This document shows positions 1,886 through 22,244 of a stretch of DNA of 22,338 nucleotides, in pieces; the first letter of the stretch is position 1, and each line of letters opens with the position of its first letter. The stretch lies in the UHGV virus genome UHGV-0114988; one strand, 5' to 3'. The position numbers and the translations under genes were made by a program. The notes beneath the pieces were generated by a model. It was not told the origin of the DNA. It did no database searches and worked only from the letters and a program-made list of their open reading frames with translations. This DNA comes from a virus.

Positions 1886-3877
1886 TTATGATGATGCCCG
1901 GCTTTCGTTAACTTTGACTGTGACCGTATCAAGCAGTACCGGATACGTCGCTTTTGCCCCCGTGATATCTGTCAGCGTCAGCGTATCTGCTGTAAAGCCA
2001 TCATTTGTCCACATCACCAGGTCAAACGCAGACTGCTCTGTATCATCAATCACCGGCACCACTTTTTCGCTGTTATTTCCCGCAAAGCGGAAAACAACTG
2101 TATGCCAGTTATGGTCAAATGCCCCAAATGTGCCCAGTTGCGCATTCGACTCCCCCTTGTGGTACATCAGATTCAGATTTGATGCATCCGTCTGAAGGAA
2201 GAAGGACGCCAGCATGCTGTTTGCTGTCGCGCCTGACGCCCACTGCGACACCGGCCAGTACAGACCAAAGACAAACTGACCGTTAACCAGTTCGACACCC
2301 TCCGGGATCTTAAACCGCACGGCAATTTCACCTCCCTTACTGAGAAGATTTTTTGCCTCCTCCACCGCAACAGTACGGAACATCTTCCAGGAGGTCAGTT
2401 TACCCGGCTGTTTTTCCAGTCGCAGCGCCTTCCTGCCACTGTCATCCGTCACAGTGCCTTTACCACCGGACGCATTCCACTGCTGCTCTGTCCATACACC
2501 ACTGCCACTGTTCGCATCATATCCGGCCACCATTCTTGTTACGGCTTCAGTATGACCGCCTGCAGAAGTACCTGCACCCTGCTGTTGCGTCGGACCCGCA
2601 GAGCCAGACTGTGCATCCCCCGTGGAGGCTGGCGTGGTCGCCAGCGGTGCAGACTGCCCGCTCAGGAACGGCAGCAAACGCCCGGCTCGCACCAGTATCT
2701 CTCCTGCCAGCCGATCTGAAACAATGCCTCTTCGCGCCCAGGAGCTGAAGTGCGTTTTACGATCGGCTGTCGTCCAGTTACCATTACTGCGTGACGCGGC
2801 ACCATAGTATCCCGCCGTGATAATGTCCGGATCTTCTGACGGCTCGTTTGTCGGCACATTCGCACCATGCTCATCCGTCATCAACGGCACAAAGTGAATA
2901 TTCTGCGCCGCCTTGCCTTTATAGCCTCCGTAAACCGCCTCATACTGCACTGCATACTTCGCCTTCCAGTCGTACGTGGTGTCACCGCAAATCCACGGGA
3001 CGCCGGACGTTGTCCCGCCAATACACTGGTCTGCAATATCTGCCAAGTCTGCACGGTATTTATTTACCATGGCAAGAAAAAGTGCATTGTGCTCTGCATG
3101 TCTCCCCGAACTGACATCTTTTTCCCCCTGCATCCAGATCACCGACAACAGCACGTTTTTCGGATTTTTCTTCAGGGCTGCACGCGTTCTGCTGACCAGG
3201 TCACGATACAACGGTTTATCCACCCCCCACAGGGAAGAGCCCGCTGTCGCACCCGACGCCTCATTAAACGCGCCCTCTGCTCCCGCAGTAAATCCCGAAT
3301 CGCCACGTCCACACGGGACAAGAAGGATCCCCGCACGGGCAGGCATAAACGGCAGCAGTTTTTTGGCCACATGCAGGGCATGCCCCACACAGCCATACTG
3401 CCCTTTATTGAGGTCTGCTTTCGGGTGATTCAGATTACTCACGTCCTGCACATCATGCAGACAATGGTCTGCAGGAATAATGTCGTTATATGCACAGGCC
3501 GCACCGCCCGGTGTCACCGTGCTGCGACGCGCCAGTTGCTTAATACGCGGGTCAGGACGATCATACGTATCCGGCAGCGGCAGCCCCTCGCCAAAAGACA
3601 TCGAGTTGGACTGCCCGGCCAGCGCAATGACAAAGTAATATTCCGGTTCGCTGGTGGTGCTGATAACTGTGCCTTCTCCATCCGACGGCTTCACCACCAC
3701 AGGTGTGGTGACATTACCTTCTGCGACAATCGCCTGAATAAGTGCTGCGCCATCATCCGTATACGAAGAAAACGGCCCGCCGTATGGTTGCCATCCTTCA
3801 CGAATTTTTTGAGCAAGCGCATCCGCAAGGTCTGACGGCGATGCCGCCCTGACCACGTCATAGTGTTTAAATGCCAT
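1886..3877 (-). CDS. nanS-p: NanS-p-like prophage sialate 9-O-acetylesterase (SGNH/SASA-type hydrolase), 663 aa
   Basis: GQSN catalytic-serine motif (YFVIALAGQSNSMSFGE) and an N-terminal segment resembling the DUF1737-type region of EHEC prophage NanS-p proteins, from memory. Strong GGGAGG RBS before the ATG at 3877. Occupies the position downstream of Q/tRNA as in Stx-type phages. Confidence 0.75.
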   Translation of the reverse strand: MAFKHYDVVRAASPSDLADALAQKIREGWQPYGGPFSSYTDDGAALIQAIVAEGNVTTPVVVKPSDGEGTVISTTSEPEYYFVIALAGQSNSMSFGEGLPLPDTYDRPDPRIKQLARRSTVTPGGAACAYNDIIPADHCLHDVQDVSNLNHPKADLNKGQYGCVGHALHVAKKLLPFMPARAGILLVPCGRGDSGFTAGAEGAFNEASGATAGSSLWGVDKPLYRDLVSRTRAALKKNPKNVLLSVIWMQGEKDVSSGRHAEHNALFLAMVNKYRADLADIADQCIGGTTSGVPWICGDTTYDWKAKYAVQYEAVYGGYKGKAAQNIHFVPLMTDEHGANVPTNEPSEDPDIITAGYYGAASRSNGNWTTADRKTHFSSWARRGIVSDRLAGEILVRAGRLLPFLSGQSAPLATTPASTGDAQSGSAGPTQQQGAGTSAGGHTEAVTRMVAGYDANSGSGVWTEQQWNASGGKGTVTDDSGRKALRLEKQPGKLTSWKMFRTVAVEEAKNLLSKGGEIAVRFKIPEGVELVNGQFVFGLYWPVSQWASGATANSMLASFFLQTDASNLNLMYHKGESNAQLGTFGAFDHNWHTVVFRFAGNNSEKVVPVIDDTEQSAFDLVMWTNDGFTADTLTLTDITGAKATYPVLLDTVTVKVNESRASS

Positions 3878-7590: not shown

Positions 7591-7791
7591 TTACACCTTT
7601 TGTCTAGCTGTCACTTCCTGAAAAAGTTTTTCTATCGCACGTACTGTAGAAAAGCGAGGGTCAGAATGAACCCCGGTAAGAAGCCGACTAATAGAAGACT
7701 GCTTCACGCCTGCAATTTCGGCAATTTGGTTTTGGGTATACCCTGAATCAATCAAGCTTTTGACCATCTCTTGTGGTGTTAGTCCGGACAT
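7591..7791 (-). CDS. Cro-like small HTH DNA-binding protein (66 aa)
   Basis: HTH-like segment YTQNQIAEIAGVKQSSISRLLTG. Divergent from the CI-like repressor, first gene of the minus-strand early operon, GGAGA RBS. Confidence 0.6.
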   Translation of the reverse strand: MSGLTPQEMVKSLIDSGYTQNQIAEIAGVKQSSISRLLTGVHSDPRFSTVRAIEKLFQEVTARQKV

Positions 7792-7932: not shown

Positions 7933-8607
7933 ATGATTGATACTACCGATATCCTTTCTCAAAACATCAAGTACCTGATGGACAAAGCCAAGATAAGCTC
8001 GATAACTGAGCTGGCACGTCGGTTACAGCTGAACCAACCAACGCTACACAGGCTGGTATCAGGAGAGGTGAAAGATCCGAAATACGCAACGTTAAAGCAG
8101 ATCGCCGACTACTTCCACGTGTCACCAATAGACTTGGCAGAAAGGAGCCTTCAAGAAATGGAGAAAGAGGACGCGACAGGTATAAAAACGTATATTTCTC
8201 TTAGGTTTAATAAAGTACCTGTTTTGGGAAACACTCAGCTAGGCGTTGGAGGACTTTGGAGCGACACCCAATATTCAGTAGGTAGCAGTGATGGTTTCAT
8301 ATACTGGCCGACAAAGGATGAAGATGCATACGCCCTGAAATGTGTTGGTGATTCAATGATGCCTAGAATCAAAGAGGGGGAGTTCGTAATCGTCGAACCC
8401 AACCACGACTACACTCCTGGTGATGAAGTACTTGTGGTTACCCGGGACGGTGAGGTCATGGTTAAAACCTTCTTGTTCGAACGCGATGGCCTGTTCCATC
8501 TAATGTCTGTAAATGAAGATCATCCACCAGTCAGAGTACCACGCGAAAACATTGAAAAAATCCATTACGTGGCGGGGATCGCCAAATCCGCGCTACGTAT
8601 GTACTAA
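7933..8607 (+). CDS. cI: CI-like prophage repressor: N-terminal HTH plus C-terminal LexA/S24-type autopeptidase domain
   Basis: N-terminal HTH (SITELARRLQLNQPTLHRLVSG); C-terminal GDSMMP (Ser nucleophile) and VMVKTF (Lys) consistent with an S24 Ser-Lys dyad; 224 aa. Confidence 0.85.
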   Translation: MIDTTDILSQNIKYLMDKAKISSITELARRLQLNQPTLHRLVSGEVKDPKYATLKQIADYFHVSPIDLAERSLQEMEKEDATGIKTYISLRFNKVPVLGNTQLGVGGLWSDTQYSVGSSDGFIYWPTKDEDAYALKCVGDSMMPRIKEGEFVIVEPNHDYTPGDEVLVVTRDGEVMVKTFLFERDGLFHLMSVNEDHPPVRVPRENIEKIHYVAGIAKSALRMY

Positions 8608-9025: not shown

Positions 9026-9550
9026 TCATCTGGCAGGTTGTAACGGTGCAGGAATTTTGCCACTGACTTCTATATTTCGGGGAAATTTATATTCAGCGGA
9101 GCATTTATGACACTTGAGAATTTTATAAGCGGCATTAGAAGTATGGTATTGAAGTATAGACTTCATACCCGACTCATAGCATGTAGTACAAAGATAATGA
9201 GGCTTGAACTCAGGATCGTCAGTAGGCTTCAGTACATAGACCACCGTATTGGTAATCGGGTGGTACATTTCATAGTTCATTTTCTCACTATCCCAATCCT
9301 GTTTCTTTTCCAGAAGGGATTCGAGTTCAACAATGCGCTGTTTAGCTTCGTTCAAAAGCTCCGTTAGTGCGAATTGTCCAGTACGCGCATCAATTAGTTT
9401 ATCAAGTAGATCGATAGTTTTACTTTTAACATTGTAATCCACCTGCAACGCATTAACTTCTTTTGCTAAATCAACAGCACCTTTCAAAGCACCACCAGCA
9501 CTAGTGGCCGCCTCAGTTATACGCCGTACAAGTCCTTTTTCTTCAGACAT
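9026..9550 (-). CDS. Hypothetical coiled-coil protein with C-terminal Cys4 zinc ribbon (174 aa); moron-like gene opposed to the early-left operon
   Basis: ATG ORF; N-terminal 100 aa predicted helical/coiled-coil; CxxC...CxxC (CTTCYE...CHKCSAEY) at the C-terminus. No family recognised. Confidence 0.55.
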   Translation of the reverse strand: MSEEKGLVRRITEAATSAGGALKGAVDLAKEVNALQVDYNVKSKTIDLLDKLIDARTGQFALTELLNEAKQRIVELESLLEKKQDWDSEKMNYEMYHPITNTVVYVLKPTDDPEFKPHYLCTTCYESGMKSILQYHTSNAAYKILKCHKCSAEYKFPRNIEVSGKIPAPLQPAR

Positions 9551-12720: not shown

Positions 12721-13063
12721 GCAAAGGGGAATATGCCCAGAGCTACCTGTATTGTTCTGGTTAGCACCCAGTCGCCCTGCTACCCCGATATTGACTCATC
12801 GCCCCCTTCCGGTTTATGCTCACCGAATCTCCCAAATGGAGATCGGGATTTGCAACCCGGAATTGTTAGGGGCGACACCAGACGCGCCAGCGTCTTTTTT
12901 ATTGTCGCAAGCTTTGCCACGTTCGCATTATGGCGGGCTGGCGGGGGCGCTTCGGCGCGCCGGTTTCCTCTAACGCCGGTATTGCAAACCTCGTCAGTTC
13001 GCCACCCATATGAGATTTGCAACTCAGTGGTGGCGGTGAATTTCACCGTTAGAGGTAACTGTG

Positions 13064-13828
13064 ATGGCAACTCAGCTCATCCCCGTTTTCAACGGCGCTA
13101 TCGCCAACGAAACCACCCTGCTCTGCAATGCTCGCGATCTGCACGCATTCCTTGGGGTAGGGAAAGTGTTTGCAGCGTGGATTACATCACGAATTGCAGA
13201 CTATGAATTCGTTGAAAATCAGGATTATATCGTAACGTTTTCCAAAACTGGAAAGCGTAAAAATGTTCTTTGTAAGGACTACCACCTCACTCTCGATACA
13301 GCCAAAGAACTGGCGATGGTGGAGCGCAACGAAAAAGGCCGCCAGATCCGCCGATACTTCATCGAGTGCGAAAAGAAACTTCGCCAGCAATCCTCCACGA
13401 TACTGGCGCCACACAGGGAGTGTCTGCCGAAGATGGTTTACCATCACCGGAGCAAATACAATCCGTACAGGGCTTATGCATGGGACGGAGAGAAAAGCGT
13501 TTACGTCGGGTGCTATCCGACTGTGGATGAGGCTGTCGCTGCTCAGGAACGCTTCTACCGGAACGGCAGCACGAAACGCATTCAGAAGGCGCAGACAGCA
13601 GTCAGTGACGCAGAGAAGGAAATGTTCATCAACAATCTCCGCGCCGTCTGCCATAACTTCCGGCGCATCAATGAAATCTGGCGGGCGCAGTTAATGCCTG
13701 CTCTCGAAAAAATGGATTCGAAACTGGTTTACCAGCTGCATGACCGCTTCAGCGACAGCATGTGCATTCTGCCGACCATAGAAGACCGCATCGGCAGATA
13801 TATTCCGCCGTCACAGCTTCCACACTAA
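13064..13828 (+). CDS. AntA-family antirepressor-like protein with uncharacterised C-terminal domain (254 aa from ATG; track start is GTG at 13061)
   Basis: N-terminal region (ARDLHAFLGVGKVFAAWITSRIADYEFVENQDY ... YHLTLDTAKELAMVERNEKGRQIRRYFIECEKKL) resembles the AntA/AntB N-terminal domain as recalled. AGAGG RBS. Confidence 0.6.
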   Translation: MATQLIPVFNGAIANETTLLCNARDLHAFLGVGKVFAAWITSRIADYEFVENQDYIVTFSKTGKRKNVLCKDYHLTLDTAKELAMVERNEKGRQIRRYFIECEKKLRQQSSTILAPHRECLPKMVYHHRSKYNPYRAYAWDGEKSVYVGCYPTVDEAVAAQERFYRNGSTKRIQKAQTAVSDAEKEMFINNLRAVCHNFRRINEIWRAQLMPALEKMDSKLVYQLHDRFSDSMCILPTIEDRIGRYIPPSQLPH

Positions 13829-13943: not shown

Positions 13944-14543
13944 TCATTTGGCCTGATACTTACTTGCATCTATTTTCAATAATTGGGAATTATACTTCTT
14001 TATAACGCCTCGTCCCGGAAAAAGAAACCAAAACATAAAAGCCATCCATATACACAGCAGCATTAAAACAGCGCTCATTCCTATAAAAACAGCGCCATAA
14101 TTTAACGACCAACAGAAAAATATCAAGCCATCAGCCAAATAAAAGATAGAAACAACTTTAGAACACCAGCGACATCGTTTGTATTTACCTTTGTAGCGTA
14201 TAAAGAATCTATCGTATTTACACTGAATATGGGGTGCTAAATAACCCCACTGCCAAAACGGCATTTTCAATTCAGAATACGTTCTGACATAAATAACTAA
14301 CGTTCTTAATTTCTGGCTACTTATACCTAATATACTTTTTTTAACTTCTCTTTTGATTTCTGCCTTCATAAACTCTACATCAGAAGGCTCAATATGCTCC
14401 GGATAATTCTTCAGAATATGCGAGAATTTTGTTGTTTTCGGTAAAAACCAACTAGCATCTTTAAATAACTTATAAACACCGACTGGTGCAGTTATGGCTG
14501 AAATTATGACTCCAACAAGTGAGATAATATCTTTCGTATCCAT
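13944..14543 (-). CDS. Hypothetical AT-rich membrane protein (about 199 aa from ATG at 14543; track ORF starts at a TTG at 14570)
   Basis: Markedly AT-rich codon usage relative to its neighbours; predicted TM helix at the N-terminus (IISLVGVIISAITAPVGVY) and two at the C-terminus; Lys/Arg/Cys-rich central region. Opposite strand to the flanking replication genes. Confidence 0.5.
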   Translation of the reverse strand: MDTKDIISLVGVIISAITAPVGVYKLFKDASWFLPKTTKFSHILKNYPEHIEPSDVEFMKAEIKREVKKSILGISSQKLRTLVIYVRTYSELKMPFWQWGYLAPHIQCKYDRFFIRYKGKYKRCRWCSKVVSIFYLADGLIFFCWSLNYGAVFIGMSAVLMLLCIWMAFMFWFLFPGRGVIKKYNSQLLKIDASKYQAK

Positions 14544-14569
14544 GTAGCTAATTCTTCGGAGTAAATACA

Positions 14570-16633
14570 ATGTCCAATATACTATGGGGCGACCTGGAAA
14601 CTTTCTGTGAAATATCTATCAATAATGGCACCCATGCGTATGCCGAAGGCGTTGAAGTGATGCTGTTCGCATGGGCTATCAACGACGGGCCAGTAAACGT
14701 GTGGGATATCACTGCCGGTGGTGGTATTCCACACGGCTTATACGAAGCAATCGCAGCCCCTGAAACCCTGCTTTATTTTCATAACTCTCACTTCGACCGC
14801 ACCGTCCTGCGTTATGCAATGCCGCGCCTGGCACCGCCAGTCGAACGTTGGCGCGACACAATGGTGCAGGCGCTGGCGCACGGTCTCCCGGGGTCTCTGG
14901 GGGAACTCTGCGAAGTACTAGGCGTCCCGCAAGACAAAGCGAAGGACAAAGAAGGTAAAGCGCTGATCCAGCTGTTCTGTAAGCCACGCCCGAAAAACAG
15001 CAAACTGCGCCGGGCCACCAGCAAAACCCACCCGGAAGAATGGCGGCGCTTTGTTGCTTACGCCGGACTGGATATCGAGGCAATGCGCGAAGTCTGTAAA
15101 CGTCTGCCGAAGTGGAATTATCAGGGGACAGAACTGGCGCTCTGGCATCGTGATCAGCAGATCAATGACCGGGGCGTCTGCATGGACGTGGAACTCGCAC
15201 GCGCTGCGATCGACGCGGTAGACCAGGAACAAAAGCGCCTGGCAAAGCGTACACAGGAAATGACTGATGGCGAAGTGCAGGCAGCCACACAACGAGACGC
15301 GTTGATTAAGCACATTGTTGAATCCTACGGTGTGGAGCTACCAGACATGCAACGCAGTACTCTGGAACGTCGTATTGCCGACCCCGATTTACCATCTGCC
15401 GTGAAAGAACTGCTGGCTATCCGCCTGCAGGCCAGTACTACCAGCACCAGTAAATACAAGGCACTGATGAAAGGCGTAAGCCACGACGGGCGCTTACGCG
15501 GTACGCTACAGTTCTGCGGGGCGTCACGTACCGGTCGTTGGGCCGGACGGCTATTCCAGCCCCAGAACCTTCCCCGCCCTTCACTCAAACAGGAACAAAT
15601 AGACGAAGGCATCGAAGCACTGAAAGCCGGATGTGCAGACCTGCTGTTTGACAATATCATGGAACTAACCAGTTCAGCGTTACGTGGCTGCATTATCGCG
15701 CCAACAGGCAAAAAGCTGGTGGTAAGTGACTTGTCGAACATTGAAGGCCGTATGCTGGCATGGCTGGCGGGAGAAAAATGGAAACTGAATGCATTCAGAG
15801 AGTACGACGCCGGGACGGGTCCGGACTTATATAAACTGGCGTATGCAAAAGCTTTCGATATTGCACCAGATGATGTTGATAAACACATGCGTCAGATCGG
15901 TAAAGTCATGGAACTCGGTCTGGGTTATGGTGGTGGTGTGTCGGCCTTCATCACTTTTGCACTGGTTTACGGTCTCGATCTCGACGAGCTGGCGAACGCC
16001 GCACTACCAAACATTCCCCGCGATGTTATCCGCGAGGCGAAAAGCTGGTACGACGAATCGGTTAAACGCAAGTCAACCTACGGGCTTTCTGAACGGATAT
16101 TTATCGCCTGCGACTCACTTAAACGTCTCTGGCGCAGGGCGCACCCGGCGACCTGCGATTTCTGGTACGAACTGGAGCGCACCGTCCGCACTGCAATCGC
16201 CACACCGCAAAAAACATTGTATTGCGGCTATCTTAAAATCCGCCGCGATGGCGCGTGGCTGCGCATACAGCTACCATCCGGACGCGCTGTATGCTACCCG
16301 TCTCCGGTTATCGAACAAGGGAATATCACCTACATGGGTGTTAACTCTTATTCGCGTAAATGGCAACGACTCAAAACCTACGGCGGAAAGCTGGTGGAGA
16401 ACGTCACCCAGGCGGCCGCCCGCGACGTTCTGGCCAGAAACATGCCGCTTATCGAAGATGCCGGTTACAGCATTGTGCTGACGGTACACGACGAGGTGAT
16501 CACCGAATCACCTGACACAGAAGATTTCAACGATAAAGCGCTTTCCGCGCTTCTCTCCACTAACCCCGAATGGGCGCCCGATATCCCACTGAACGCTGGC
16601 GGTTTTGAGGCGTACCACTACCGTAAGGATTAA
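14570..16633 (+). CDS. Family A DNA polymerase (T7/PolI-like) with 3'-5' exonuclease domain, 687 aa
   Basis: Exo motifs GDLETF and [12 protein letters not shown]; polymerase motif [16 protein letters not shown], motif [17 protein letters not shown], motif C LTVHDEVI. Confidence 0.9.
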
Positions 16634-17150: not shown

Positions 17151-17409
17151 ACGTGAGAGCCTTATCGAAAAGCACCTCGTCGCTGAAGTGAAAAAGGCTG
17201 GCGGTGTGGCCTTTAAGTTCGTATCTCCCGGTCGCCGCTCGGTACCGGATCGCATTGTCCTGCTACCCGGCGGTCGCATCGTTTTCGTTGAATGTAAATC
17301 TCCCGGCAAGCCACCACGGCCTGACCAGTTGCGCGAACATAAACGTCTGCGAAAGCTGGGCTTTACCGTGGTGGTGCTGGATAGCAAGAACCTAGAGAGG
17401 ATATTGTGA
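17140..17409 (+). CDS. VRR-NUC-type small PD-(D/E)XK nuclease (about 89 aa from internal ATG of track ORF 17113..17409)
   Basis: Motif VPDRIVLLPGGRIVFVECK (D...E-x-K) within a roughly 90-aa protein. Confidence 0.55.
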   Translation: MAYERESLIEKHLVAEVKKAGGVAFKFVSPGRRSVPDRIVLLPGGRIVFVECKSPGKPPRPDQLREHKRLRKLGFTVVVLDSKNLERIL

Positions 17410-17546
17410 AAAAATCAGATGAACACTTACAGTTTAAATTACGGATCCCCCGCGCATTAGCGGAGGAGTTAAAGAAAACAGCAAAGAAAAATATGCGTTC
17501 AGTAAATGCAGAAATATTATTCAGACTAGCTAAAGACCTTAAGTAA
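17406..17546 (+). CDS. Arc-like ribbon-helix-helix repressor (46 aa, GTG start overlapping the upstream stop)
   Basis: FKLRIPRALAEELKKTAKKNMRSVNAEILFRL parallels the P22 Arc pattern (FNLRWPREVLDLVRKVAEENGRSVNSEIYQRV, recalled). Below the ORF-track cutoff and GTG-initiated, hence moderate confidence. Confidence 0.45.
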   Translation: MKKSDEHLQFKLRIPRALAEELKKTAKKNMRSVNAEILFRLAKDLK

Positions 17547-17564
17547 CAATTTCGTTACGGTACC

Positions 17565-17879
17565 TTATTTTTTCCCCAAACGATTTTCTACGAGTTCATG
17601 CAGCCTTTCTAAGAGTTCTGTGTTTTTTTCAATATTTTTGCCCCACTCATTAAGCAAAGATTCAGCTTCGCGTCCAAGCCCCATACCTTCAGCTTGGCGT
17701 AGATATAAAAACGCATGAGTATTCTGGCTTTCCAGCTTATTTATTGCAGGAAATGAAGACCTTAAGCGTTGAAGCACCTCTGCATTCAACGAACGACCGT
17801 TAGCACGGGCTGCATTCTCCAATAATTCTTTCAGTTCCGCAGGTAAACGGATCTTCATCTGCGCATCTTCACGACTCAT
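17565..17879 (-). CDS. Mnt/Arc-family ribbon-helix-helix repressor (104 aa)
   Basis: N-terminal KIRLPAELKELLENAARANGRSLNAEVLQRL is an Arc/Mnt-type RHH; length and C-terminal extension are Mnt-like. Divergent from the Rha-like antirepressor operon. Confidence 0.6.
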   Translation of the reverse strand: MSREDAQMKIRLPAELKELLENAARANGRSLNAEVLQRLRSSFPAINKLESQNTHAFLYLRQAEGMGLGREAESLLNEWGKNIEKNTELLERLHELVENRLGKK

Positions 17880-17911
17880 AGTAACTACCTCATAAACTCG
17901 ATTCTCAAAGT

Positions 17912-18169
17912 ATGCACCACGGTGGTGTTGACATCAATAAACCACGGTGGTTTACTGAAATGGACCACAGTGGTTTCATCGAGGTTAACGCTATGGCTAT
18001 TCAGATCACACAGTTACATCAGGCAGATATTTTCGGGTATATCGCAGACATGCTGGAAACAGCAAGACTTCTCAGTTCGCTGGAAAAAGGAGAGCAGTTA
18101 GCTTTTGAATTGATTTATTTTGCGCAGCAGGCCGCAAGGGAAGCTGCAAACAAGCCGTGGGATGAATAA
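17912..18169 (+). CDS. Hypothetical small protein; track ORF is 85 aa but the true start is probably internal (Met28 at 17993, 58 aa), because a promoter and operators overlap the 5' end
   Basis: ORF in the ant-like operon upstream of the Rha-like gene. GAGG RBS precedes the ATG at 17993. Confidence 0.35.
   Translation: MHHGGVDINKPRWFTEMDHSGFIEVNAMAIQITQLHQADIFGYIADMLETARLLSSLEKGEQLAFELIYFAQQAAREAANKPWDE
17915..17975. promoter_or_regulatory. Three palindromic operator-like sites (C)CCAC-n-GTGG(T) interleaved with a + strand promoter (TTGACA-17 nt-TTTACT)
   Basis: CACCACGGTGGTG at 17915-17927, ACCACGGTGGT at 17941-17951, ACCACAGTGGT at 17964-17974; TTGACA at 17928-17933 and TTTACT at 17951-17956. 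Confidence 0.45.
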
Positions 18170-18229
18170 ACAAAACGCGCTGATAGTTGCAGCTACCAGC
18201 GCATCCTTTACTGAATGGAGAACACTTCA

Positions 18230-19009
18230 ATGTCCGAAAGAACTTTAACACTAGCAGGCACTGGTAAGCAACCGATGATGAGCAGTCGCGAGATAGCAGA
18301 AGTGGTAAATAAAAACCATGCCGATGTTTGCCGTGATATTCGTGCAATGCTGGCAAAGCTTTACGGCGGTGATGAGCGCGATTATATCCGTAAAGCCGAT
18401 TTGCTTTACCTTACGAATCAGTGTGTTAATTGCCTGCAGTACAATACCGATAATCCAAACGCATGGGAGTACCAACTTGACTATGAACACTCCGAATGCC
18501 TTGTAACAGGTTACGATGCCGTTCGTCGTATGGCGATGATTAAGCACTGGCAAAAACTGAAAAAAGAAGTCGAGCACCCCCAGTTAGCTATCACTCACCC
18601 CGCACCTGTAATTCAGGTGGATAGTAGAATTGTCCAGCTTGCTCGCGTCATCGCGGAGGCAACCGCATCAGCAACCATGAAAGCGATGTCGGAGGTGATT
18701 GCCCTTCCGACATATCAAGCAGAATCGGCCGCACCAGCTAATTTATCTCATGTTAAAGGTGAATATGTCCCCGTCAGCAAAGCAGCATGGAAAACAGGTT
18801 TATCTGATTCAACATGCCGGAAATTGATCGGCTTCGCCAGGATACCGGTACGTTCAGACACCGGTGTTCGGGGATTGCTCGTTAACCTCCCAGCGATCGA
18901 ACAAGCAGCTCAAAAGCTGTTAAACGAATCGACACCGCCGAAAGGTAACCGCAAGCGCTGGACACATCCGCAGTTTGGCAACTTCACCTACTACACCGAT
19001 CTAATCTGA
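18230..19009 (+). CDS. Rha-family phage regulatory/antirepressor-like protein (track ORF starts at 18215; ATG at 18230 has the better RBS)
   Basis: MSSREIAEVVNKNHADVCRDIRAM matches the conserved Rha N-terminal motif as recalled. Confidence 0.6.
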   Translation: MSERTLTLAGTGKQPMMSSREIAEVVNKNHADVCRDIRAMLAKLYGGDERDYIRKADLLYLTNQCVNCLQYNTDNPNAWEYQLDYEHSECLVTGYDAVRRMAMIKHWQKLKKEVEHPQLAITHPAPVIQVDSRIVQLARVIAEATASATMKAMSEVIALPTYQAESAAPANLSHVKGEYVPVSKAAWKTGLSDSTCRKLIGFARIPVRSDTGVRGLLVNLPAIEQAAQKLLNESTPPKGNRKRWTHPQFGNFTYYTDLI

Positions 19010-19053
19010 CATTATTGCGCGGGATTACCCCGCGCCCTACTGGCTAAAATACT

Positions 19054-20448
19054 ATGGGACAAATTTTCACGCCTCGCCCCTACCAAGATCTAATTATCAA
19101 CCACGAAATAGGTATTTCCCGCTGCAACATCTGGGCGGGCATGGGTATGGGCAAAAGTGTAGCCACTCTGACGGCGCTGGAAGATCTCTTCATGGCGGGT
19201 GCAGAAACACAACCTGCGCTGGTTCTCGCGCCGCTGCGCGTGGCTGCCAGCACATGGCCTGATGAAGCGCTGAAATGGGGGCATCTGCGTAATATTGAGG
19301 TGCAACCGATTGTTGGTAACGCCAAAGCGCGCTCTACGGCGCTGGCGAACAGCAACGCGAGCGTGTTCACCATCAACTACGATAACCTTGTCTGGCTGGT
19401 TGAAGAATTGGGAGAACGATGGCCGTTCGGTACTGTCATTCCAGATGAAAGCACCCGGCTAAAATCCTTCCGGCTGCGAGGTGGTGGTAAGCGCGCGGCG
19501 GCGCTGGGCAAAGTGGCGCACAAGTATGTCCGGCGCTGGATAAATCTCACCGGTACGCCAGCACCGAACGGCCTGGTAGATTTGTGGGGACAATCGTGGT
19601 TTGTGGACCAGGGGCAACGTCTCGGGCGCACTTACGGCGCGTTTACCTCACGCTGGTTTAATTCGATACAGTTTCCGGGACAGAGCTGGACTAAACTGGA
19701 GCCTTTTGCTCACTCACAGGGTGAAATACAGCGAGCATTAGCCGATGTGACCCTCTCGCTGGATGCGGCCGACTGGTTCGATATCAAAGCCCCCATCCAT
19801 AACGTAATCCGCGTGGATATGCCGCCGAAGGCCCGTCAGCAGTATCGTGAAATGGAAAAGGAAATGTTCCTCGAGCTGAATGGCGAAGGCATCGAAGCAC
19901 CTAACGCCGCGGCAAAGACACTGAAATGTCTTCAAATCGCCAGTGGCGCAGTATACACAGACGACACCGGAAGTTGGTCAGAACTGCATGACACCAAACT
20001 ACAGGCGCTGGACAGCATACTGACCGAAGCAGCTGGCGCACCTGTGCTGGTTGCTTATCACTGGAAACACGATCTTGAACGCTTGCTTAAAGCATTCCCT
20101 CGCGGTCGTCACCTCGACCAGGATCCACAGACACTGCGCGACTGGAATTCCGGAAAGATTCCTGTTCTCTTTGCACACCCAGCCAACGCGGGCCACGGCC
20201 TGAACATGCAGGACGGCGGAAATATACTGGTATTTTTCTCACACTGGTGGGACCTGGAGCAATATCAGCAAATTATTGAACGCATCGGGCCAACCCGGCA
20301 GATTCAGGCCGGACACAACCGCCCGGTGTTCATTCACCACATTATCGCCGCCGACACTATGGACGAAATGGTGATGGAGCGGCGCAACTCAAAACGAACA
20401 GTGCAGGACATCCTGCTCGATGCCATGAAAAAGAGAGGTATAGCATGA
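19054..20448 (+). CDS. SNF2/DEAD-like superfamily-2 helicase (464 aa)
   Basis: Walker A GMGMGKS, motif II VIPDESTRLK (DExx), C-terminal helicase domain; typical partner of the polymerase/primase module. Confidence 0.8.
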   Translation: MGQIFTPRPYQDLIINHEIGISRCNIWAGMGMGKSVATLTALEDLFMAGAETQPALVLAPLRVAASTWPDEALKWGHLRNIEVQPIVGNAKARSTALANSNASVFTINYDNLVWLVEELGERWPFGTVIPDESTRLKSFRLRGGGKRAAALGKVAHKYVRRWINLTGTPAPNGLVDLWGQSWFVDQGQRLGRTYGAFTSRWFNSIQFPGQSWTKLEPFAHSQGEIQRALADVTLSLDAADWFDIKAPIHNVIRVDMPPKARQQYREMEKEMFLELNGEGIEAPNAAAKTLKCLQIASGAVYTDDTGSWSELHDTKLQALDSILTEAAGAPVLVAYHWKHDLERLLKAFPRGRHLDQDPQTLRDWNSGKIPVLFAHPANAGHGLNMQDGGNILVFFSHWWDLEQYQQIIERIGPTRQIQAGHNRPVFIHHIIAADTMDEMVMERRNSKRTVQDILLDAMKKRGIA

Positions 20449-20645
20449 GCGAGAAACCCGACGATTTACTCACCCCGGATGAAGTATGCCAAAAGTTAGG
20501 TATTACACAGAAAACGCTATGTGAGTGGAATATTAAGCATCGTCATCGGGCTATCCTGGCTCCAATTCGTTTCAGTGCAAAAGTAGTTCGTTATGAGCGC
20601 CGAAATGTCGACGCTTTTATTCAAAAGTGTCGCAGCCAGTATTAA
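20445..20645 (+). CDS. AlpA/Xis-like small HTH protein (candidate excisionase or directionality factor), 66 aa
   Basis: LTPDEVCQKLGITQKTLCEW HTH-like segment; adjacent to and convergent with the integrase gene, with a 4-nt overlap. Confidence 0.5.
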   Translation: MSEKPDDLLTPDEVCQKLGITQKTLCEWNIKHRHRAILAPIRFSAKVVRYERRNVDAFIQKCRSQY

Positions 20646-22039
20646 CCTCGCCGCCGTAGCAATGCAACCTGCGCAAGTATGCTCCGCTCGTGAGCCTCGA
20701 AAGCTTCGCGCTTCAACGCAATATCTTCCTGCAAAATCTCATCAGAAAAGTCGTAATGTTCTGCCATCGGGTCATCTGACTTGCTGGAGTGGTGAAGGCA
20801 AAGGAGGCTGATTTCCCTTCGGTCTGATCGGGAATAGCCTCTTTCCTTCATCAAGGCAATAACATTGCTCTTAAAGAATTTACGGCACATCGTATTAAAT
20901 GTACCGTCTTTCCCTTTAACAGTCCCATCATGTTTTATTCCTTTTACAGCCCCATCCGGGCTGTATGTTTTCACTAGCTTATCCAGTGATCGTTTTGAAA
21001 ATGGCTGCATTGGATCACGCGGCTGCAAAAATACATAATCCCTGTTGCACTCAGGAACTGAATCACGCCATGCTTTCTGCTCGTCGATAATCCGCCGGAT
21101 CTCCGGCGTTATTGGCAGGCGGAAAGCCTTTTGTGTTTTCATAGCCCCTCGCATGCCGATAACCCCTTCAGGATAAACAATTTCGCCAGTCTCCTCCTGA
21201 ACGTAGTCCCAGCGCAGGTTATGGACATTAATCGGACGAACGCCGGTGATGATCATGAAGCGAACAGCATTCTTCTGGTGTACAGAGGTGCAGGCGGCAA
21301 CATTGAGCCAGAGCCGGGCGATTGACTCAATATCGGTAAAAAGCCGTGTGGGGGTGGGTTTCTGTACGCGGGAGGAAACATAATCATCTGGCAGACTGGC
21401 GGCAACATTGCGGCCATTGCAAAGAGTAGGTGCGCAGAACTTCCAGAACCGACGGAGCTCGGCAAACAACTCCAGGGCGTTATTGTTCGAGCGAGTGGCG
21501 ATCCACTCGTCCAGCACTTCCACCAGCCGATTGTATGTTACGTCGCTGAACACCTCGCGCTCGCCGAACGTGGCTTTAATCCGGTCGATACGCACCCCGT
21601 AGGTTGTGAAACTGTCCGGGCTCAGCTTCTGCCGGGCTACTTTAGCTTTGAGGTCATCCCGGTACATTTCCAGCGCTGCATGTACGGACTCCGCCCGCAG
21701 TCCACCGTCAGCCATACCTAGTGCTTTTTCGCGCGCCAGCTGGATAGCGAGCTCCGGCCACTCGCCGAGCTTTTTACCTTTGAGGCCCATCTTTTTTGGA
21801 AACTCGGCGTAAAATGTAACCTTACTGGCTTTGCTGAAATCGATACGGAGATAGTTCTCTTTTTCGTATTTGGAACGGCGAGCCACGCCGGAAGCAGCGA
21901 GGATGATTTTGGCGGCAGCAACACAGATTTTCATGTGTGCGCTGGTATAGGGGGGTTTACAGGCGTCCCATTTTTCAGATGCGGCTAAAACATCGTCATT
22001 ATTGGGGCTATCCGGATTATGTGTTACAGTGCGCGGCAT
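20642..22039 (-). CDS. int: Tyrosine-type site-specific integrase (about 465 aa from ATG at 22039; track ORF begins at an in-frame TTG at 22045)
   Basis: C-terminal catalytic-region motifs (GVRPINVHNLRW with Arg; LCLHHSS; AEHYDF with the putative Tyr). Terminal position next to a host gene. AAGGA RBS before the ATG. Confidence 0.75.
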   Translation of the reverse strand: MPRTVTHNPDSPNNDDVLAASEKWDACKPPYTSAHMKICVAAAKIILAASGVARRSKYEKENYLRIDFSKASKVTFYAEFPKKMGLKGKKLGEWPELAIQLAREKALGMADGGLRAESVHAALEMYRDDLKAKVARQKLSPDSFTTYGVRIDRIKATFGEREVFSDVTYNRLVEVLDEWIATRSNNNALELFAELRRFWKFCAPTLCNGRNVAASLPDDYVSSRVQKPTPTRLFTDIESIARLWLNVAACTSVHQKNAVRFMIITGVRPINVHNLRWDYVQEETGEIVYPEGVIGMRGAMKTQKAFRLPITPEIRRIIDEQKAWRDSVPECNRDYVFLQPRDPMQPFSKRSLDKLVKTYSPDGAVKGIKHDGTVKGKDGTFNTMCRKFFKSNVIALMKERGYSRSDRREISLLCLHHSSKSDDPMAEHYDFSDEILQEDIALKREAFEAHERSILAQVALLRRRG

Positions 22040-22244
22040 TCTCAATCCTTATCTGCGTAGGCGCAGAAAACAAGCTCACACATACAAGTCTTTTCTACGG
22101 GACAAAATGCAATGTGTTGCGGTTTTGTGTTGCTGGACTGAGTTTATCAAGGTTAAATACACTGGATCAACATACAGTAAGTGAATGACAGTAAAGCATA
22201 CAAACTCGATACAACTTACTGATTTTAAAATAATTTAATGGTAA

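Follow-up and report, generated by a model that had tools for sequence, protein, structure and literature searches.

In the immI region of phage P22, two small repressors divide the work between them, with Arc responsible for shut-off and Mnt for maintenance, and the antirepressor encoded in the regulated operon, Ant, acts on several heterologous repressors. In the immI regions of phages P1 and P7 and in the antirepressor locus of N15, a small open reading frame (ORF; for example, icd) is translationally coupled to ant, and control is exerted by the c4 antisense RNA in P1 and by LexA together with a small RNA in N15. Here we analyze a locus in a 22,338-nucleotide (nt) stretch of the virus genome UHGV-0114988 (hereinafter, the window, meaning the whole stretch), in which two genes for ribbon-helix-helix (RHH) proteins, three palindromic operators, a gene for a 58-amino acid (aa) protein (orf58) and a gene for a Rha-like protein (rha) make up a cassette. 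This cassette is a self-contained, horizontally exchanged regulatory unit akin to the P22 immI region: it is a circuit of the immI type, built from twin-specificity repressors, three Mnt-type operators and different cargo, and its regulatory logic is well supported. The parts of the cassette are as follows.

17406..17546, plus strand: arc-like gene, 46 aa, last cistron of the early/replication operon
17565..17879, minus strand: mnt-like gene, 104 aa, converging on the arc-like gene and diverging from orf58
17937..17909, minus strand: candidate leftward promoter of the mnt-like gene, -35 TTGATG (17937..17932), 17-nt spacer that holds O1, -10 CATACT (17914..17909)
17915..17927 (core 17916-17926): operator O1, CACCAC-G-GTGGTG, abutting the rightward -35 and lying within the leftward promoter spacer
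17928..17956, plus strand: rightward promoter of orf58-rha, TTGACA (17928-33), 17-nt spacer, TTTACT (17951-56)
17938..17954: operator O2, perfect 17-bp palindrome TAAACCAC-G-GTGGTTTA, between the rightward -35 and -10
17963..17975 (core 17964-17974): operator O3, GACCAC-A-GTGGTT, at the expected transcription start
17993..18169, plus strand: orf58, 58 aa, acidic product, GAGG Shine-Dalgarno sequence at 17982-85
18172..18207: GC-rich hairpin between orf58 and rha, with a minus-strand T-run over the orf58 stop
18230..19009, plus strand: Rha-like gene, 259 aa, member of the Bro-N network
19017..19035, plus strand: GC-rich hairpin that bounds the cassette on the right, GCGCGGG-ATTAC-CCCGCGC (-15.3 kcal/mol, z -2.8)

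The original prediction, made from this sequence without database searches, recognized a 46-aa Arc-like gene at the end of the replication operon and a divergent 104-aa Mnt-like repressor gene, and profile and structure comparisons bear out both assignments. The short and the long protein match the Pfam family Arc (PF03869) with 39.2 bits (E 6e-10) and 46.6 bits (E 3e-12), respectively, against a cut-off of 20.4, and both fall into phrog_795, the PHROG family of P22 Mnt, which is the top PHROG of the Arc-like protein. Among solved structures, both match P22 Arc and Mnt: the Arc-like protein finds the Arc entries of PDB with E from 2e-5 to 1.7e-4, its beta-strand being aligned to Q9/N11/R13 of Arc, and the Mnt-like protein finds 1MNT with E 3.8e-5. 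The Mnt-like protein consists of an N-terminal RHH domain, with 49% identity between its residues 1-37 and P22 Mnt (E 2e-11), followed by a C-terminal extension (~60 aa) that is variable. When aligned with P22 Arc and Mnt, both proteins show an N-terminal beta-strand in which DNA-reading residues alternate, then R-x-P and a G/N-R-S/T helix-turn motif; the invariant residues are R13, P15, N29, R31 and E36. The recognition strands are Q9-K11-R13 in the short protein and Q7-K9-R11 in the long one; across the alignment, the reading positions hold Q/K/R in class I and Q/R/R in class II of the cassette (see below), Q/N/R in Arc and H/N/R in Mnt.

The arc-like gene is tightly joined to the early operon, with its GTG start overlapping the stop codon of the VRR-NUC gene, and at all loci compared, this start lies no more than 1 nt from, or overlaps, the preceding early gene (VRR-NUC or SNF2). 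The two RHH genes are arranged tail to tail, with ends 18 nt apart in the window and overlapping by 4-32 nt at other loci, and RNA folding reveals no structure between them (z -0.3). At least five unrelated C-terminal tails (40 to ~100 aa) are attached to the same Mnt-like N-terminal domain, irrespective of specificity class; the region of tail shuffling, which corresponds to 17565-17750 of the window, was delineated with the loci L012, L016, L017, L020, L025, L026, L049, L051 and L055.

The palindromes flanking and overlapping the promoter of orf58 and rha are far from a chance assemblage. Exactly three copies of the motif CCACNGTGG are present in the 22.3-kb window (at 17917, 17942 and 17965, all within 57 bp), compared with 0.24 expected copies, and none of 100 shuffled sequences contained three. 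The 11-mer ACCACNGTGGT is likewise present in three perfect copies, with no one-mismatch copy elsewhere in the window. The TTGACA-17-TTTACT promoter accompanied by three palindromes is thus present as originally described, with the refinement that O2 extends to a 17-bp palindrome; the TG at 17948-49, contributed by the right arm of O2, provides an extended -10 of this promoter. The mnt-like gene is inferred to be read from the candidate leftward promoter, the -35 region of which lies back to back with the rightward one.

Comparison of 11 class I spacers from four genera yields a footprint of this control region. Ten half-site bases are invariant in each operator and the central base is free (G, C, A or T); the other invariant columns are TTGACA, GTGGTTTACT and the TATGC left of O1 that holds the leftward -10 on the minus strand. 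Both rightward hexamers are invariant in these alleles, as is the TATG of the leftward -10, which reads CATAAT in most alleles. In class II, TTGAC(A/T) is retained although the remaining spacer is replaced, and in one such locus (L026), the default promoter scan calls TTGACA-18-TAGTAT at the homologous place. A search for LexA control found TACTGAAATGGACCACAGTG at 17953-17972 (TACTG-N10-CAGTg, one mismatch to TACTG-N10-CAGTA); this match is made up of the -10 and O3, is missing from the other class I alleles, and was judged coincidental.

The principal evidence that connects the RHH proteins to these operators comes from the comparison of ~20 distinct alleles of the cassette, collected from IMG/VR, Logan, NCBI and JGI assemblies and representing Escherichia, Salmonella, Serratia, Yersinia and Xenorhabdus. 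The window and Escherichia coli SI-NP020 are ~97-98% identical from the orf58 Shine-Dalgarno sequence onward and in VRR-NUC, with 100, 98 and 98% identity, respectively, for the orf58, Rha-like and SNF2 proteins, and yet a diverged block (41-49% protein identity) takes the place of the RHH gene pair and the intergenic control region. The joint replacement of the RHH genes and the operators next to downstream genes that remain ~98-100% identical is a strong argument for the RHH proteins as the repressors that bind these operators. The alleles fall into two classes, with a perfect association of recognition strand and operator. In class I, the strands are LQFKLR.P in the short protein and QMK(I/V)RLP in the long one, and the three sites are of the form ACCAC-N-GTGGT, matching at 10 of 10 bases in every allele. 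In class II, PQLRVRIP is found in both proteins, and CTCAC-N-GTGAG occurs three times at the same positions, perfectly in L026 and L033. The inner CAC-N-GTG is common to both classes, which diverge at the two outer base pairs of each half-site. The class-variable position of the strand aligns with Asn11 of P22 Arc (K in one class and R in the other), with Gln9 and Arg13 retained; in 1PAR, the co-crystal of Arc with its operator, these aligned positions (Gln9, Asn11 and Arg13) are the base-contacting residues. Helix B differs between the classes as well, changing from RS.NAE in class I to RT.T(A/S)E in class II.

The same orf58 allele is combined with either class, both in E. coli (window versus L001) and in Salmonella (L016 versus L017), so that the RHH pair together with its operators behaves as an exchangeable specificity unit, in the manner of an immunity region. 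Variation of the palindromes is not linked to variation of the Rha-like protein or cI, which leaves the RHH proteins as their readers, and because the short and the long protein of each cassette share a recognition strand, both are expected to act on the same sites. The Rha-like protein as an operator-binding autoregulator was rejected given that it is 98% identical in the window and L001 despite their different palindromes. A third specificity class was sought and not found among the ~20 distinct alleles. On these grounds, binding of the operators and repression of the rightward promoter by the RHH proteins are strongly inferred.

The comparison with P22 was made with the annotated record NC_002371 (L054). 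In that record, Pant is TTGACA-17-TATATT; counted from where the -35 begins, Oarc, between the hexamers, is centered at +15, and Omnt, which lies at the start site, at +43; in the window, the centers of O2 and O3 are at +18 and +41, respectively. The annotated mnt operator of P22, ATAGGTCCACGGTGGACCT, has a 9-bp core, CCACGGTGG, in common with O1 and O2. Thus, both P22 operator positions, and a third one, hold Mnt-type sites in the window, and an Oarc-type TAGA site is absent. The likeness extends to the presence of two repressors of the Arc/Mnt family, of which the long one, with its C-terminal extension, diverges from a TTGACA promoter; to a small first gene that precedes a larger regulatory gene within an accessory module; and to a hairpin with a minus-strand T-run over the stop of the first gene, like the sar terminator at the arc stop. 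The original claim of a P22 immI-like arrangement therefore stands with respect to the RHH homologs, the divergent mnt, the shared operator core and the positions relative to Pant, and fails for the placement of the arc-like gene and the single type of operator. Whereas the regulated ant operon of P22 begins with arc, which also autoregulates it, the arc-like gene lies outside the regulated operon and ends the early operon; whereas P22 employs two distinct operators, the window has one type in three copies, with the same reading residues in both repressors. The two promoters of the window are back to back via their -35 regions, in contrast to those of P22, which overlap -35 on -10. Unlike in P22, the first cargo gene does not encode an RHH protein, the second is not homologous to Ant, and minus-strand scans found no sar promoter in the window; finally, the cassette is located in the early region next to int, and immI of P22 in the late operon. 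The annotation of the P22 record itself deserves a remark: mnt is labeled 'partition protein ATPase' and rha 'anti-repressor' (entries 14519-14770 / 39575-40180). These RefSeq labels are propagated family names that run against the known biology, and the PHROG matches of the window carry the same ones.

The first cargo gene, orf58, is the most conserved one, with 72-100% identity across genera. The ORF called at 17912..18169 begins too far upstream, as had been suspected: the conserved gene starts at 17993, the sequence upstream of its Shine-Dalgarno sequence is wholly replaced between alleles compared with ~97-98% identity downstream, and the RefSeq annotation in relatives is the 58-aa form. 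Its protein has no matches in Pfam, PHROG or PADLOC, and its family amounts to no more than 11 clusters in a set of 1.84 billion representative proteins; when the orf58 profile was run against representative genomes, a single Serratia locus was recovered, and a search of deposited isolated phages gave none. The AlphaFold2 (AF2) model is a two-helix hairpin (helices 10-28 and 34-53) with a predicted local distance difference test score (pLDDT) of 76, and a fold search with this model returned nothing below E 4. That orf58 could be a cryptic Arc was considered and rejected, with hhalign giving 0.4% probability against the RHH alignment and the protein being acidic.

The second cargo gene most likely starts at 18230, not 18215. 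Its product comprises an N-terminal Rha winged helix (residues ~13-116; Phage_pRha, PF09669, 38.3 bits against a cut-off of 29.9, residues 17-112), a low-confidence linker and a conserved C-terminal domain (~176-259) that has no Pfam match and models as an excisionase (Xis)/MerR-type winged-helix fold. The similarity to P22 Rha is confined to a 35-aa N-terminal match. The scan of representative genomes with the Rha-like protein gave no loci, and the full-length protein is absent from the deposited isolated phages that were searched. Phage_pRha, KilA-N, Bro-N, ANT and other domains form a single domain-swapping network (PMC10111431), and the slot behind orf58 samples this network: the same C-terminal domain is preceded by KilA-N in L028 and by Bro-N in L030, and ANT is combined with KilA-N in L020 and L049 and with Rha in L051. 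In these ANT variants, orf58 overlaps the downstream gene, by 20 nt in the Serratia locus L020.

Two hairpins punctuate the cargo. In the one between orf58 and rha (18172-18207), the stem is conserved, with one compensatory pair among 10 alleles, and the 6-nt loop is hypervariable; the minus-strand RNA folds with -25.9 kcal/mol (z -3.8) and is terminator-like on that strand, and the G-U wobble evidence on the choice of strand is mixed. For an antisense RNA like sar, which in P22 is read from a promoter within the start of ant, the permissive minus-strand scan showed no promoter at a consistent position and the default scan none at all, and the hairpin has no Rfam matches. The hairpin at the right edge (19017-19035) has no T-run, so that early read-through into SNF2 is possible. 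Where the cassette is located after SNF2 and before the excisionase-like gene, the equivalent hairpin does have a T-run and is called a terminator (L016 4015-4032); because a terminator intervenes there, the idea that the cassette promoter drives the excisionase-like gene was rejected.

The window represents one half of a temperate prophage, with its early and integration genes, and the cassette lies among these. The neighboring genes to which the argument refers are as follows.

7591-7791, minus strand: Cro-like helix-turn-helix (HTH) gene, facing away from the cI-like gene
7933-8607, plus strand: cI-like repressor with an S24 self-cleavage domain
from ~9740, rightward: early operon with genes for a DUF2800 nuclease, an Enc34-type single-stranded DNA-binding protein, an AntA-domain protein and DNA polymerase A and, further on, PerC/ANR, DUF4406 and VRR-NUC genes
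19054-20448: SNF2 helicase, 3' of the cassette
20445-20645: HTH_17/AlpA-like gene, 66 aa, after SNF2
20642-22045: tyrosine integrase, convergent

The characterization of the phage as otherwise lambda-like is thus apt for the cI/cro switch and does not extend to the replication module, which is of the PolA/DUF2800/SNF2 type. The related E. coli prophages adjoin yfhL. The GC content of the cassette is 39-46%, compared with 51-57% in the flanks, and the cassette is found in 19 of 158 related E. coli prophages. The VRR-NUC-SNF2 interval is a variable cargo slot (window 17409-19053; L002 3407-4786; L003 3411-4164; L001 7811-8572) that, in relatives, is occupied by the RHH cassette, by a gene for a cytosine-5 methyltransferase with a 106-aa gene, or by a 236-aa gene on the minus strand. 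The cassette brings its own promoter and, at some loci, its own terminator.

We consider it fairly probable that an exchanged, immI-related cassette with RHH-gated operators, a hand-over between its repressors and trans-acting cargo is the overall explanation of this locus. Under this model, both RHH proteins, with their Gln-Lys-Arg strands, would bind the three palindromes through the core ACCAC-N-GTGGT, up to 17 bp. In the lysogen, the Mnt-like protein, made from its autoregulated leftward promoter, would silence orf58-rha at O2 and O3. Upon entry into a cell that contains neither repressor, the rightward promoter would fire at once and briefly, as does P22 Pant. Because the arc-like gene is the last cistron of the early operon, the Arc-like protein would be made only after infection or induction; early transcription, meeting no terminator, would run head-on into the mnt-like gene, and the Arc-like protein would take over the same operators and shut both promoters, after which orf58 and rha would be reached only through read-through from the early operon. 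The cargo most likely would have a trans-acting regulatory or entry function that is independent of the immunity type of the phage; antirepression of resident repressors is possible. Both the division of labor between the two RHH proteins and the timing of a burst on entry are suggested by analogy with P22.

Several considerations weigh against this model. RHH-operator binding is predicted from sequence comparison, and with only two classes, the covariation counts as a single switch event, in genes that are tightly linked. The rightward promoter is not called by the default scan, which rejects TTGACA-17-TTTACT because this -10 is without the usual A at position 2, and the leftward promoter, weak by consensus, lies below the default threshold. 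Although the O1-O2 spacing is constant at 25 bp in class I alleles, that between O2 and O3 varies from 23 to 31 bp, so that cooperative or looped binding should not be assumed. The timing is borrowed from a phage in which, unlike here, arc lies inside the regulated operon. Furthermore, the rightward promoter might be rarely used if the short RHH protein also represses it, and it is possible that the short protein is instead an antagonist of the long one. Along these lines, one could envisage a two-repressor, one-operator hand-over switch in which convergent transcription combined with operator competition or heterodimer poisoning would couple the lytic or lysogenic state to orf58, the latter acting as a new kind of broad-range antirepressor or counter-defense effector; such a design would be undescribed for any phage, and we regard this elaboration as unlikely.

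The alternative closest to the original prediction assigns antirepression to the Rha-like protein or orf58, which would bind cI and inactivate it, such that loss of the Mnt-like protein would induce the prophage, as in the case of P22 ant. The immI-like regulatory frame and the occurrence of KilA-N+ANT or Rha+ANT proteins behind orf58 in Serratia and related loci favor this possibility, as do, on their face, the 'anti-repressor' labels of the PHROGs that match the Rha-like N-terminal domain. This label, however, is propagated annotation and no evidence of function, given that P22's own rha carries it, the real antirepressor being Ant; the assignment of a Rha-type antirepressor, which depended solely on such N-domain labels, is accordingly abandoned. 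The Rha-like protein shows no similarity to P22 Ant (BLASTP E 1.1) and no ANT or P22_AR domain in the Pfam search, and both its domains are predicted winged helices of the DNA-binding type. Moreover, cI contains the S24 self-cleavage domain, so that induction needs no antirepressor, and the cassette is missing from 139 of the 158 related E. coli prophages. Cargo identity is 98-100% where that of the cI proteins is only 26% (window 7933-8607 versus L001 172-801, with orf58, rha and SNF2 near-identical there); the prophage family is therefore mosaic for immunity type, and considering that P22 Ant acts on heterologous repressors, conservation of the cargo across heteroimmune phages is compatible with an antirepressor. 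All told, a dedicated antirepressor against the phage's own cI is unlikely, one of broad range is possible, and we find this account as a whole doubtful; what persists of the proposed antirepressor circuit gated by RHH proteins is the gating, which the joint replacement of the RHH genes and operators upholds, and not the antirepressor.

If the cargo does not act on cI, the cassette could be an entry-burst operon for counter-defense or host takeover, in which orf58 would inhibit a function of the host or of a resident prophage and the RHH proteins would limit expression in the manner of anti-CRISPR-associated (Aca) repressors. Here, orf58 would be the effector: it is the invariant core of the cargo, next to a second gene that swaps domains, it is small, acidic and helical, without a DNA-binding signature, and it comes first behind a consensus -35 promoter with operators. 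The independence of the cargo from the immunity type and the contents of the slot in relatives, a cytosine methyltransferase or accessory genes, with a TIR-domain gene in a neighboring slot, point the same way. The positive support, nevertheless, is limited to architecture; homology and fold searches link orf58 to none of the known inhibitors, its family of 11 clusters is extremely narrow, and the repressor is not the downstream HTH protein, unlike in acr-aca operons. We consider this scenario quite unlikely. Extremely improbable, in our assessment, is the proposition that a protein other than the RHH pair (the Rha-like protein, cI or a host factor) binds the palindromes and that the RHH genes are an unrelated antitoxin or a partition remnant. 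The Mnt-like protein does score 28.2 bits against the cut-off of 27 for FitA-like RHH antitoxins, the PHROG names include 'partition protein', and the Rha-like protein has two winged-helix domains in the models. But the palindromes change with the RHH class and not with the Rha-like protein or cI, the operator core is that of the P22 mnt operator, and the 'partition' label is attached to the bona fide P22 Mnt as well. No toxin or ParA gene was found beside either RHH gene among the window ORFs or by Pfam and PADLOC searches; in particular, the co-directional toxin gene sought in the antitoxin test is absent, the neighbors being the convergent second RHH gene and the divergent orf58.

The immI-related cassette with trans-acting cargo that we favor also bears some resemblance to other described systems. 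As in P1, P7 and N15, a small ORF lies directly upstream of an Ant-type gene, overlapping it in the ANT variants; in contrast to these phages, the cassette employs RHH repressors, and orf58, without a PHROG match, is not detectably Icd-like. With the Aca-anti-CRISPR operons, it shares a strong promoter that inverted repeats overlap, a first gene with a small acidic product, and an HTH-type gene further downstream; the difference is that the repeats change together with the upstream RHH pair and independently of the downstream protein, and that no anti-defense homology was found.

The immI design, then, recurs as a mobile cassette, with its parts rearranged, among enterobacterial prophages that belong to an unrelated family and carry PolA/SNF2 replication modules. 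Its two natural classes, which differ in the central K or R, in the helix B residue N or T and in two outer base pairs, provide a ready-made system for the study of DNA reading by RHH proteins, and the pairing of a short and a long repressor of one specificity raises the question of a hand-over between lysogenic and lytic states. As the conserved payload, orf58 is the most likely place for new biology. More generally, 'anti-repressor' labels on Rha, KilA-N and Bro-N proteins should not be taken as evidence of function.

Several other genes in and around these prophages merit mention. The TIR-domain gene of E. coli SI-NP020 occupies another slot, after the polymerase gene. The AntA-domain gene of the window (13061-13828) is a second gene of the Bro-N network, located in the replication operon without RHH control, and its PHROG matches, too, are labeled anti-repressor; its protein as a homolog of P22 Ant was rejected, the pairwise comparison showing no similarity. 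Membership of the cassette in a defense system was likewise rejected, the PADLOC scan giving no matches. A lone 174-aa gene on the minus strand (9026-9550), in the gap that separates cI from the early operon, matches phrog_1244; its product has paired Cys motifs near the C-terminus, and it is possible that this is an accessory gene expressed in lysogeny. Finally, the 663-aa protein encoded at 1886-3877 on the minus strand contains DUF1737, a SASA-type carbohydrate esterase domain and DUF6645, and is probably a tail-fiber protein or an O-antigen-modifying enzyme.

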